A stretch of 64,000 nt of DNA, from the IMG/VR virus record IMGVR_UViG_2645727901_000008, one strand, 5' to 3'. Each line of letters starts with the position of its first letter. The stretch's first letter is position 1. The notes beneath the pieces are model-generated. The model was given only the letters and a program-made list of their open reading frames with translations, was not told where the DNA came from and did no database searches. This stretch comes from a virus (lineage: Duplodnaviria; Heunggongvirae; Uroviricota; Caudoviricetes). Made by a program: the position numbers and the translations under genes. Shown here one piece after another: positions 37,308-39,282 of the stretch.

Positions 37308-37761
37308 AACGTCTCCTTTTTTACACGCGCGACTATCCCCCGGAAGTACCGGTAGTGATGTCGTAACTTCGTATTAATTAAGGGGTACAGCCTGAGCGGC
37401 TATATGATGAATTGAAAGGAGTTGTGGCGGTGGTGCCTCCACCTGCCAGGTTAGCCACTCCCGGCGACGTCACTTATCAGAACGTAGTGAATGAAAATGG
37501 CTTCGTCACGAGCGCATAGCCGCAATTACCACAACGGAAACGGCGCTCACGCTAATTAAACGCCTTTTCCTGTTGTGCGCCGTACTCTTCCGGCTGTCAC
37601 ACCGAATCGCCAGGATGGTGAGTCCTCGGTCCGACGATATGAACGGGGCTTGCACATTCCGGCTACCTGGTTTGTTGCCTGAGCTAGGGGAAAAGGTAAC
37701 CCCTTTAACGTCACCAGACCGCTAACGACGCATGTGCCATACGCCGTGTTACAACCAAATA

Positions 37762-37837
37762 TGGTGGCCCCTACCGGACTTGAACCGGTGACCGTGCGAT
37801 TATGAGTCGCCAGCTCTAACCACTGAGCTAAAGGGCC
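37762..37837 (-). tRNA. ileX: tRNA-Ile2 (anticodon CAU, lysidine type; ileX-like)
   Basis: GGCCCTTTAGCTCAGTGGTTAGAGCTGGCGACTCATAATCGCACGGTCACCGGTTCAAGTCCGGTAGGGGCCACCA. Anticodon loop CTCATAA. Close to E. coli ileX as I recall it. Confidence 0.85.
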
Positions 37838-37847
37838 AATTAGTGTT

Positions 37848-37961
37848 TTATTTTCGACGCCTGAGATTCTTCGCGACTTGTTCTACGCCGTATACGATCA
37901 CAAGTAGAAACAGCAAAAACCATCCAGGGTTCTTATCGATATACGTCCAAAAATCCATCAT
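37848..37961 (-). CDS. 37-aa membrane peptide (P1 tciC position)
   Basis: Own translation: MMDFWTYIDKNPGWFLLFLLVIVYGVEQVAKNLRRRK. ATGA-coupled. Confidence 0.4.
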   Translation of the reverse strand: MMDFWTYIDKNPGWFLLFLLVIVYGVEQVAKNLRRRK

Positions 37962-38122
37962 GAGTTCCTGAACGCACCTTCAATAATCGGCAATAGCAAT
38001 ACCACAGCTACTGAAACTAATGCCCCATCAGCCAACACCGACATCACTTTGCTGGTGAAATCCACCAGTACGGACAAAACGAGAAAGCCAATGGCGCCCG
38101 CAATACGCGCCTTGCCAATCAT
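37958..38122 (-). CDS. 54-aa membrane peptide (P1 tciB position)
   Basis: Own translation: MIGKARIAGAIGFLVLSVLVDFTSKVMSVLADGALVSVAVVLLLPIIEGAFRNS. TAATG-coupled to tciA. Confidence 0.4.
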   Translation of the reverse strand: MIGKARIAGAIGFLVLSVLVDFTSKVMSVLADGALVSVAVVLLLPIIEGAFRNS

Positions 38123-38577
38123 TACAGATAATCTTCCACACGAAGGCCAAGACGGCGACCAACCTCTTCCAGAACCTTATGCTCCGCAGGTTCGATTTCA
38201 CCATCTGCTTCAGCGATCGTGAGCATGTTCACGAAGACTTCTTCCGCTTCTTTGGGATCGTTTTTGATATCTTCAATTTCGCGGAGGATATTCATGCGAC
38301 CAACACGGAAACCAGCTTCCAGTTGCTCAGTAAAACGGGTGATTGTTGCGGTAATTTCGTTGCCAAAATGACTTAAGCGAGGATTAGAGCGGACAAGCTG
38401 ATCAAGTTTCGCTGTTTCTTCCTTTTCGATTTCACCATCTGCGGCAGACACCAGCAAACAGCCACCGATGATGGCCTCCATCAGATCGCGATTCTCAACC
38501 CTTTTCAGCTCTACTTTTGCTGAAGCGACTTTCTTACCGAAAAATTTACCGAACATTGGTTTTCCCTCAATAAACAT
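38122..38577 (-). CDS. tciA: TerB-like protein (P1 TciA equivalent)
   Basis: Two ADGEIExEE repeats (SAADGEIEKEETAKL; AEADGEIEPAEHKVL), typical of TerB. Lies between tRNA genes, as in P1. Confidence 0.7.
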   Translation of the reverse strand: MFIEGKPMFGKFFGKKVASAKVELKRVENRDLMEAIIGGCLLVSAADGEIEKEETAKLDQLVRSNPRLSHFGNEITATITRFTEQLEAGFRVGRMNILREIEDIKNDPKEAEEVFVNMLTIAEADGEIEPAEHKVLEEVGRRLGLRVEDYL

Positions 38578-38823
38578 GACGTATTTATTAGGTTGCGGTG
38601 CCTGGTGCCTCCAGGTGACGTTAACCAGTTAACAATTAACGCCGGGATTTTTGTCTTCACAATTAAGGAGGATTGTTTTAACTGTTCCGCGTGCGCTTAG
38701 CCGCATTCACCGCAATGGTAAGAGCACTTGGCTGGCTGGGCGGCGATGACGCCTGTACGCATTTGGTGAACCGGTTCTGCTTCCGGCATTCGCTTAATTA
38801 GCCAAATACTCTTAACGTTGCAC

Positions 38824-38910
38824 TGGCGGAGAGTAATGGAATCGAACCATCATCGCTTGCGCAATGGGACGGTTTTCAAGACCGCTTGAGCACCATGCTC
38901 CCTACTCTCC
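38824..38910 (-). tRNA. tRNA-Ser (anticodon UGA), class II with a long variable arm
   Basis: GGAGAGTAGGGAGCATGGTGCTCAAGCGGTCTTGAAAACCGTCCCATTGCGCAAGCGATGATGGTTCGATTCCATTACTCTCCGCCA. Acceptor GGAGAGT/ACTCTCC, anticodon loop CTTGAAA. The D-loop is short. Confidence 0.7.
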
Positions 38911-39040
38911 CGTTATTGTGGCGACCGGTGCTGATCTCCGGCTTGCGGTTATTTCAGACTCTCACGGGCGTTTAATTGCCCCGCCGAACAGCTCTTTTCC
39001 GCAATAGCTGCAATGTCTTTCGCGCATCAGCCTGCGCATT

Positions 39041-39140
39041 CACCACAATGTTGAGAACACTGGTTGTCACGCTGCAACGCAACATTTATTCGTAGATTGG
39101 GATATGACCCCGTTACGCCAGTGTTCTCAACGTTGTAGTG
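39041..39140 (-). repeat. Long-range 23-bp inverted repeat (hairpin) in the tRNA spacer
   Basis: CACCACAATGTTGAGAACACTGG (39041-39063) against CCAGTGTTCTCAACGTTGTAGTG (39118-39140): 21 Watson-Crick pairs, 1 GU and 1 mismatch. A degenerate homologue spans 38707-38828. Confidence 0.6.
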
Positions 39141-39282
39141 CCGGTTACGGTTCCGGCCAGGCCTCTTCCTCAACGGGTTGTTCTCCATACGGACTACCGT
39201 TTATTGGTCGTTCCTGCGGTTTATGTTGTGAAGCCAGATGCTTATCTTCTGGTTGCTTCAAAGAGCTGCACTTCATCACAAC

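Follow-up and report, generated by a model that had tools for sequence, protein, structure and literature searches.

A five-helix RNA module related to STnc100/PasD and to kil/dicB leaders recurs among the tRNA genes of a P1-like phage-plasmid

The tRNA/tci operon and its spacers

We examined the spacers of the tRNA/tci operon in the virus genome IMGVR_UViG_2645727901_000008, of which a stretch of 64,000 nt (hereafter, the window) was analyzed. These spacers and the stretch upstream of the tRNA cluster carry a structured RNA module in four copies, denoted M1 to M4, all on the minus strand, like the tRNA genes themselves. Over this region, the window is ~95% identical to Escherichia phage D6, a relative of phage P1, and many E. 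coli and Salmonella phage-plasmids match the window at 95–97% identity. The operon comprises the following features.

37762–39613, minus strand: operon frame holding M1–M3 (ARAGORN, open reading frames (ORFs), annotations of D6, P1 and P7)
37762–37837, minus strand: tRNA-Met(cat) (ARAGORN)
37848–38556, minus strand: tciC, tciB and tciA (ORFs; annotations of D6, P1 and P7)
38824–38910, minus strand: tRNA-Ser (ARAGORN)
39365–39440, minus strand: tRNA-Thr (ARAGORN)
39445–39531, minus strand: tRNA-Tyr (ARAGORN)
39537–39613, minus strand: tRNA-Arg (ARAGORN)

The next genes after tRNA-Met(cat), on the minus strand too, are orf6, orf5, lpa and pacAB. The counterpart of this region in phages P1 and P7 is the ban operon, which C1 represses, and the P7 annotation has the C1 operator Op(ban) controlling the tRNA genes. 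Where the window carries tRNA-Tyr(gta) and tRNA-Arg(tct) (39445–39613), D6, P1 and P7 have tRNA-Asn; one IMG/VR contig (L140) shows the same order as the window, Arg-Tyr-Thr...M3-Ser...Met. For tciA, the probable start codon is the ATG at 38556, with its GAGGG Shine-Dalgarno sequence, and not the longest-ORF start at 38577; the D6 annotation of a 144-aa protein agrees with the start at 38556. The spacers had been described in a first-pass annotation of the window as free of ORFs, and D6 has no annotated coding sequence there, although mechanical ORFs of 30–59 aa are present.

Hairpin and box as parts of a single RNA

The same first-pass annotation had reported, from the spacers between 37308 and 39282, a recurrent hairpin with an invariant plus-strand loop TGCCT and compensated 5-bp stems, as well as a box with a distal GAGMACWYTGG half, and had treated the two as separate modules. 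The three hairpins lie where they had been placed, namely, GGTGG-TGCCT-CCACC at 37429–37443, CCTGG-TGCCT-CCAGG at 38601–38615 and GGGGG-TGCCT-CCCCC at 40324–40338, the last of these beyond the interval 37308–39282, as that annotation's own coordinates show. No other perfect 5-bp stem surrounds TGCCT in the 64-kb window; the three lie within 3 kb on one strand, and a scan of the whole window found no perfect 5-bp stem around AGGCA. By comparison, 200 dinucleotide-preserving shuffles yielded 0.18 such hairpins on average and never more than 2; furthermore, TGCCT is the sole pentaloop that recurs three times among the 86 perfect 5-bp/5-nt hairpins of the window. All three copies have the preceding GTTGYRGY sequence (repeat family D7), the box is a genuine repeat (family D2, with copies at 37521, 38702, 39035 and 39268), and the 23-nt inverted repeat 39041–39063 / 39118–39140 is present as well, with 91% complementarity (I5).

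Very probably, a single folded RNA module of ~105–140 nt, with four copies among the tRNA genes, has the box at one end and the hairpin at the other, because the consensus of the Rfam family STnc100 (RF02076), a prophage-encoded RNA, holds both motifs. This consensus begins with caUGGUGAAU and ends with CCGGG-AGGCA-CCCGG-CACCAug, and, in M2, the minus-strand box UUGCGGUGAAUGCGGC and the sequence CCUGG-AGGCA-CCAGG-CACCGCAA match its two ends. Thus, instead of two separate modules, the hairpin is helix P5 and the box supplies the 5′ strand of helix P1 of a single module: on the minus-strand RNA, the GCATTCACC box is the 5′ strand of the closing helix P1, and its GCATTCACCRCAAYG part comprises this strand, the AAU linker and the start of P2. 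The covariation-supported partner of this part is not the long-range hairpin that had been proposed but the GTTGYRGY sequence beside the TGCCT hairpin, ~100 nt away, whereas the second half of the box (GAGMACWYTGG) is part of a different, upstream hairpin, which looks like a decayed tRNA-like acceptor stem.

The module has five helices. The closing stem P1, of 8–9 bp (5′ GUUGYGGUG / 3′ CACCRCAAC), is followed by a 3-nt AAU linker; P2 has 5 bp, a 1-nt bulge and the loop UNNGC; P3 is variable; P4 is a hairpin of free sequence, after which comes a single A; and P5, a 5-bp hairpin with the loop AGGCA, abuts the 3′ strand of P1 without a linker, so that the junction linkers are 3/0/0/1/0 nt. The same architecture was obtained from minimum free energy (MFE) folds of the four candidate stretches, each independent of the others. 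An initial definition of P2 as a 3-bp helix (GCG/CGC, used in covariance model R1 below) was abandoned, STnc100-type and M4 sequences showing the 5-bp stem with a bulge. The copies and their helices are as follows.

37418–37538, minus strand: M1, in the spacer between tRNA-Met and orf6, in the orf6 leader
37528–37535 (GUUGUGGU) / 37421–37428 (GCCACAAC), minus strand: M1 P1
37429–37443, minus strand: M1 P5, GGUGG-AGGCA-CCACC
38589–38719, minus strand: M2, leader directly 5′ of tciA, ending ~25 nt before the tciA Shine-Dalgarno sequence
38708–38715 (UUGCGGUG) / 38593–38600 (CACCGCAA), minus strand: M2 P1
38601–38615, minus strand: M2 P5, CCUGG-AGGCA-CCAGG
M2 internal helices: P2, GCGGC-UAAGC-GC-A-CGC; P4, GGCGUUAAUU-GUUAACU-GGUUAACGUC
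38912–39052, minus strand: M3, variant subfamily, 3′ end 1–4 nt from the 5′ end of tRNA-Ser
39041–39049 (AUUGUGGUG) / 38915–38923 (CGCCACAAU), minus strand: M3 P1
38924–38942: M3 P5, GCCGG-AGAUCAGCA-CCGGU; M3 P2, GCGCA-GGCUGA-UGCGC
40313–40418, minus strand: M4, in the long noncoding stretch upstream of the tRNA cluster
40408–40415 (GUUGCGGU) / 40316–40323 (GCUGCAAC), minus strand: M4 P1
40324–40338, minus strand: M4 P5, GGGGG-AGGCA-CCCCC
M4 internal helices: P2, GCACC-UAUGC-GG-A-UGC; P4, GGGG-AUAU-CCCC
39222–39285, minus strand: candidate degenerate mini-copy, with a P1-like pair GUUGUGAUG/CUUCACAAC and one internal hairpin; its P5-like hairpin, CCAGA-AGAUAAGCA-UCUGG, has an M3-type loop

The loop is nearly but not strictly invariant: the M3 hairpin at 38924–38942 has the plus-strand loop TGCTGATCT, and the phage P1 orthologue of M2 has AAGCA in place of AGGCA.

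Covariance models and covariation

We searched the window on both strands, with filters off, using three covariance models. R1 was built from seven lambdoid copies and M2; R2, which includes all five helices, from Evi-type lambdoid copies, P7 and M2 only; and R3, which represents the M3 type, from eight unrelated metagenomic viral contigs and Klebsiella phage BUCT610. The models from related phage copies match four modules in the window. M1, the sequence of which is in none of the three models, scored 57.4 bits with R1 (E = 5.6e-12), 48.5 bits with R2 (E = 5.9e-12) and 19.3 bits with R3 (E = 0.004), and its MFE fold is the module architecture. M2, part of the seed of both R1 and R2, scored 114.6 and 140.5 bits with these models, respectively, and 30.1 bits (E = 7e-6) with R3, which was built without it. 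M3 was recovered by R3 at 81.9 bits (E = 4.8e-19), with 26.6 bits for R1 and 24.5 bits for R2, and M4 by R2 at 46.4 bits (E = 2.4e-11) and R1 at 22.5 bits (E = 1.3e-3), again with an MFE fold in agreement.

Beyond M1–M4, nothing in the 64-kb window was significant with any of the models, the next R1 match after the four modules having 12 bits and E = 0.36. The next-best match under all three models is the mini-copy at 39222–39285, which is listed as a candidate only because it is never significant (R1, 10.9 bits, E = 0.76; R2, 10.9 bits, E = 0.31; R3, 13.5 bits, E = 0.11). A fifth full module at ~39132–39282 was considered and rejected, since the module fold does not form there and the models give the mini-copy instead; an orphan half consisting of P5 and the 3′ strand of P1 lies at ~39128–39160.

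For the analysis of covariation, 67 distinct sequences (from the window, P1, P7, D6, a Salmonella plasmid, eight named phages and 45 viral contigs) were aligned to R2. Standard pairs occupy 98.2% of the 2077 cells, and both sides have changed in 25 of the 32 pairs (P1, 7/9; P2, 4/5; P3, 2/3; P4, 9/10; P5, 3/5). None of 500 shuffles reached the observed covariation values, and sliding the partners by 1–3 columns reduced pairing to 27–50%. With R2, M2 scores 140.5 bits on the forward strand and 9.5 bits on the reverse, and many of the pairs are G-U, so the structure is that of the minus-strand RNA. Hence the earlier view of a selected minus-strand RNA structure with compensated stems is borne out by both the model searches and the covariation. 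Being read from the minus strand, the modules would be co-transcribed with the tRNA and tci genes.

Distribution across phages

Relatives, far from lacking the motif, carry the modules in D6, P1, P7, lambdoid phages and viral contigs. D6-like elements have all of M1–M4, P7 has M2 and a weak M3, and P1 has M2 only. The fold is found in phages of Escherichia, Salmonella, Klebsiella and Cronobacter as well as in metagenomic viral contigs, of which more than 240 match the modules and at least 120 contain the M3-type pattern GGTGAATGCGCA-N6-TGCGC. The neighbors of M3-type copies are diverse, with 93 downstream-ORF clusters among the matches listed; by a coarse, noisy ORF clustering, the downstream context of the main type (M1, M2, M4 and the lambdoid leaders) is kil/dicB-like and that of the M3 type includes a holin-like cluster of six. 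In Klebsiella phage BUCT610, an M3-type and a main-type module stand in tandem (L009, 2297–2432 and 2504–2618), the first overlapping an opposite-strand hypothetical coding sequence, gp48, which may be a mis-call.

Decay is evident in places. The M2 orthologue of one Salmonella plasmid has a disrupted P5, and the same spacers contain decayed tRNA-like material, namely, the element at 39283–39364, the hairpins upstream of M2 and M3, and the mini-copy. The modules might accordingly be taken for remnants of duplicated tRNA genes or selfish repeats that are functionless now. Such an origin is very improbable, however, in view of the compensatory changes in all five helices across phages of Escherichia, Salmonella, Klebsiella and Cronobacter and viral contigs, the nearly invariant loop and junction nucleotides, and the number of viral contigs with matches.

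Relationship to STnc100 and PasD

The one notable non-tRNA Rfam match is to STnc100, at 38594–38714 on the minus strand (38.9 bits in an E-value scan, against a gathering score of 47; model positions 31–147). By the gathering score, M2 falls below membership, and M1, M3 and M4 gave no Rfam STnc100 match at E ≤ 10. Neither is M2 a full-length STnc100, its match being local, with model positions 1–30 and 148–206 absent. The core fold, in contrast, is shared: the M2 alignment shows the same helices and the GGAGGCACC signature, and the fold is recovered in M1, M2 and M4.

STnc100 and PasD are prophage-encoded, Hfq-associated RNAs of lambdoid and Stx prophages that have been judged to be of common ancestry; their RIL-seq targets and northern-validated sizes have been reported, with no established function for PasD and only a hypothetical role, stx2 regulation, for STnc100. 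They resemble the modules in the closing stem (..UGGUG/CACCA..), the AAU linker, the P2 loop UNNGC, the penultimate hairpin and the last hairpin CCNGG-AGGCA-CCNGG that abuts the closing stem (also in the STnc100-like copies L020 and L072), and, like the modules, are phage-borne and co-stranded with their neighbors. Unlike STnc100, the window copies lack a 5′ extension and a 3′ seed/terminator part and, instead of lying downstream of Q/stx, occur in the tRNA operon of a P1-like phage-plasmid, four in 3 kb.

With Hfq-associated RNAs that have RIL-seq targets as the nearest relatives, the modules could themselves be bodies of Hfq-dependent, trans-acting base-pairing small RNAs (sRNAs), using P3/P4 loops or flanking single strands as seeds. 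The lambdoid copies that are followed by a single-stranded RprA-like seed and an intrinsic terminator (see below) fit such a role, as does the strong terminator at 40097–40080, 216 nt downstream of M4. We nevertheless consider this explanation unlikely. The M2 match stops short of the terminator extensions of STnc100, no terminator or U-tail follows P1 in M1, M2 or M3, so that the usual Hfq-binding 3′ end is lacking, and the five-helix junction with its invariant loops is kept across very different seeds, which suggests a function of the fold itself.

Relationship to the kil/dicB leaders

M2 is ~80% identical over 120 nt to leaders of kil/dicB, and such relatives occur in many temperate phages. 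In lambdoid phages, the main-type module resides in the early-left operon, downstream of a cI-like repressor gene and directly 5′ of kil or gam, as in 75/02 Stx, Evi, Klebsiella ST405-OXA48phi1.2, SfV, ST64B, phiES15 and 118970_sal3; these copies, at 33–41 bits, are below the STnc100 gathering threshold too. In Evi, DicF is immediately upstream of the module. In phiES15, an RprA-like seed (AUUGCUGUGUGUAGUCUUU) and a terminator come after the module, directly upstream of kil (L008, 2605–2670), and an RprA-like 3′ extension is found in SfV- and ST64B-type copies as well (Rfam RprA, 41 bits; gathering score, 70); judging from the sequence, this extension may be a prophage sRNA that mimics the RprA seed. 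In Qin, a prophage of E. coli K-12 MG1655, the module exactly fills the dicF-dicB gap (NC_000913.3, 1649451–1649584; R2, 137.6 bits), carries no annotation and is not mentioned in a recent study of dicBF regulation. The P1 helix of Qin-like copies is a 21-bp duplex that ends 4 nt before the dicB Shine-Dalgarno sequence and is a possible RNase III site.

The resemblance between M2 and these leaders extends to their position directly 5′ of a small gene linked to cell-division inhibition, whereas the lambdoid P1 is longer, up to 21 bp, and the lambdoid copies often have DicF before them or an RprA-like seed and terminator after them; M1, M3 and M4 are paralogues far more divergent from the kil/dicB leader than M2. 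Taken at the level of helices and consensus motifs, the comparison shows the module core to be a distant relative of both STnc100/PasD and the lambdoid kil/dicB leader, and the first-pass statement that neither function nor family could be derived was too pessimistic, given that the module is a sub-threshold relative of these RNAs. What was known is the STnc100/PasD core fold; what is new here are copies that are terminator-less, seed-less, mostly invisible to the curated model, four-fold and located in a tRNA operon. The literature searched appears to contain no account of the wider superfamily, of its K-12 member or of the tRNA-like features: nothing on the element was found in work on P1/tciA/tRNA and dicB/dicF, and literature matches to the sequence fragments were unrelated primers only.

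Main-type copies stand right in front of kil, dicB or tciA and share their strand, as would be expected if the modules were cis-acting leaders gating these genes and orf6-lpa-pac, be it through control of translation or stability, as an RNase III site or as an aptamer. The 21-bp Qin-like P1 stopping just before the dicB Shine-Dalgarno sequence, the end of M2 ~25 nt before that of tciA and the location of M1 in the orf6 leader point the same way, and aptamers are commonly built as multi-helix junctions closed by a stem like P1, with invariant nucleotides at the junction. As an account of the whole set, a leader function is quite unlikely all the same: M3 is followed by a tRNA rather than an ORF and M4 by noncoding RNA; the genes downstream of M3-type copies are, as noted, very diverse; no terminator/antiterminator or Shine-Dalgarno-sequestering alternative pairing of the P1 3′ strand is evident; and the context points to no ligand.

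Several of the operons concerned (early-left, late, P1 ban) need terminator read-through, and put-like processive antitermination, in which the RNA modifies RNA polymerase in long operons, has therefore to be weighed. The put RNA of phage HK022 consists of two stem-loops separated by one unpaired base, and P4 and P5 are likewise two stem-loops one unpaired base apart. Yet the search of HK022 20000–32000 (the immunity region with putL/putR) with R2 found no module, with a best match of 7.3 bits (E = 0.63), the SfV module lies downstream of annotated terminators, and such a role needs no four copies in 3 kb; antitermination of this kind is extremely improbable.

Other known RNAs were considered and dismissed. 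For rydB (RF00118), only the P5-like hairpin aligns (13.7 bits, E = 1.5–6.5), the fold being not significant; a search of the K-12 rydB locus with R2 found no module, and Rfam gave no rydB match for the mini-copy. The 'dicF-like region' of phage P1 has only the terminator GCCCAUCUUCGGGUGGGC in common with the window, with a poor alignment to DicF, and there is no Rfam DicF match in the window. Matches to CRISPR-DR25 and microRNA families in Rfam are trivial.

Resemblance to class II tRNAs

The topology of the modules matches that of a class II tRNA (Ser/Leu/Tyr type), with counterparts of the acceptor, D, anticodon, long variable and T arms: there are five helices in the same order with near-identical linker lengths, and the closing stem directly abuts, and would stack on, the 5-bp last hairpin. 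This helix order and the P1/P5 arrangement hold for all copies. In the M3 type, P1 is mostly 7–9 bp, and the P2 loop GGCUGAu is complementary over 5–6 nt to the P5 loop AGAUCAGCA in most members, perfectly so in M3 itself (GCUGAU with AUCAGC). One position of this loop pair varies, G-C being replaced by G-U (2–4 cases) or A-U (1 case), with one A-C exception; in the main type, both the P2 and the P5 loop contain an invariant GC. Together, these features suggest, but do not prove, a contact between the P2 and P5 loops. A CCA within 5 nt after P1 is present in 26 of the 81 distinct M3-type members listed, compared to a background of 5.2% (binomial p ~3e-14, an optimistic value because the sequences are related). 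Among the 119 M3-type copies listed, 13 have tRNA genes within 1.5 kb, all co-stranded, and several are located inside tRNA arrays, with gaps of 4–43 nt.

Other observations weigh against reading the modules as tRNA-like. None of the four window copies has a CCA tail, and in the main type as a whole there are 0 of 44, with a P1 that can be 10–21 bp, so that the argument for tRNA mimicry comes mostly from the M3 subfamily. No module is called a tRNA by ARAGORN or by the Rfam tRNA model (RF00005). The P5 loop (5 nt, AGGCA; 9 nt in M3) is not a T loop, and, unlike class II tRNAs, the modules have no 7-nt T loop, D-loop GG or anticodon loop; the likeness is one of architecture and not a demonstrated homology. 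Only 11% of the listed M3-type copies are near tRNAs, the loop-loop covariation is slight (one compensated variant and one uncompensated A-C), the covariation alignments were fitted to the models, and a simple end-protecting role would need no invariant junction.

A precedent for tRNA mimicry is YrlA, a Y-RNA-like noncoding RNA of enterobacteria and phages in which one domain mimics tRNA while a canonical T arm and a Ro-binding stem are kept. Compared with YrlA as generally described, the modules are without the T arm and the Ro-binding stem, and no scan of the module stretches yielded an Rfam match to a YrlA-like family.

A proposed tRNA-like RNA and its processing

We propose, with a probability of about 0.6, that the modules are four paralogous copies, together with a degenerate remnant, of a conserved structured RNA domain that would be excised as a tRNA-like RNA. 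The mechanism of processing and tRNA mimicry is more tentative, and we put it somewhat short of an even chance. Under this scheme, the modules would be transcribed within the polycistronic RNA and released by the nucleases that mature the neighboring tRNAs; for example, RNase P, by cutting at the tRNA-Ser 5′ end, would generate the M3 3′ terminus and leave it a 3-nt tail. The released RNA would adopt a compact, tRNA-like L shape, in which P1 and P5 stack and the P2 and P5 loops touch via the invariant G-C dinucleotides. It could then persist as a stable RNA or as a structured 5′/3′ end cap (M2 for tciABC, M1 for orf6-lpa-pacAB), and a factor of the host or the phage would bind to its invariant junction and loops.

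A still broader proposition, which by analogy would make the modules part of a large, essentially undescribed class of phage tRNA mimics, is doubtful. Members of such a class would share the five-helix topology of class II tRNAs, a loop-loop contact resembling that of the D and T loops and, in many cases, an encoded NCCA end. They would mature by the tRNA route and interact with a factor that handles tRNAs, for instance RNase P, the CCA-adding enzyme, EF-Tu or an anticodon-nuclease defence of the host, and both STnc100/PasD and the dicB/kil leader would derive from this scaffold instead of being ordinary sRNAs. Should the tRNA-like reading hold, phage-host biology would gain a new class of tRNA mimics.

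Regardless of mechanism, a few unexplained hairpins can now be read as parts of one five-helix RNA, with its coordinates set and three working covariance models available. This fold, which is not marked in the annotations inspected, spans P1/P7/D6-type phage-plasmids, many lambdoid and Stx phages, at least 240 viral contigs and K-12, and it links the prophage sRNAs STnc100 and PasD to a conserved structural core. Given that the core can exist without seed or terminator, studies of STnc100/PasD and dicB/kil should weigh a function of the fold itself.

Neighboring hairpins and other elements

Three further elements are interspersed with the modules.

39041–39140, minus strand: 'long-range hairpin', inverted repeat I5, with Rfam matches to microRNA-like hairpins
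38718–38816, minus strand: hairpin between tRNA-Ser and M2, GUUAAGAGUAUUUGG / CCAAGUGCUCUUACC, 14 of 15 pairs formed, two of them G-U
39283–39364, minus strand: odd tRNA-like element, with a 12–15 bp terminal stem GGUAAGGGUAUUUUG/CGAAGUACCCUUACC and a canonical T arm AGGGUUCGAAUCCCU

The inner 14 bp of I5 (39050–39063 / 39118–39131) are a separate hairpin 5′ of M3. Its outer 9 nt (39041–39049) are the 5′ strand of M3 P1 and also match an orphan sequence resembling the P1 3′ strand, CACUACAAC (39132–39140), such that the outer I5 pairing and the covariation-supported M3 P1 are mutually exclusive. The hairpin at 38718–38816, as read from the sequence, carries the second half of the box, and its 3′ arm belongs to family D2. 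The hairpins before M2 and M3 have 3′ arms (AGUGYUCUYAMC) similar to the 3′ strand of the acceptor stem in the odd tRNA-like element. This element directly precedes the mini-copy, folds at −31.8 kcal/mol (z = −3.4) and is 95–97% conserved in D6, P1 and the Salmonella plasmid but not conserved in P7; neither ARAGORN nor Rfam calls it a tRNA.

Upstream of the tRNA cluster, the minus-strand sequence at 39981–40035, UAAAU-GCA AAC GAU GAU CUG AUG AUG GUA GCG GCC UAA, can be read as ANDDLMMVAA*, similar to the tag ANDENYALAA of E. coli tmRNA (Rfam tmRNA_permuted, 23.6 bits, E = 0.017); ARAGORN calls no tmRNA at 39981–40035, and no tRNA-like domain was seen nearby. The 100-nt stretch around it is 95–99% conserved in D6, P1, P7 and a divergent Salmonella plasmid, compared to 79–88% for the flanks. 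The strong intrinsic terminator GCCCAUCUUCGGGUGGGC-UUUUUU (40097–40080, minus strand), common to the window and the P1 'dicF-like region', is preceded by a perfect 17-bp inverted repeat, 40117–40133 / 40179–40195.

Two imperfect inverted repeats, I1 (40388–40432 / 40459–40503, 73%) and I4 (40477–40503 / 40530–40556, 81%), overlap the 5′ strand of M4 P1 and P2 and could form a structure competing with M4. Further upstream, the only promoter-like site on the minus strand (TTGATT-17-TAGAAT, 40819–40791) is flanked by the 17-nt direct repeats TTTCTAACACTTTAATT (40687–40703) and TTTCTAACATTTTATTT (40843–40859), which are possible operator sites for an operon starting with M4.

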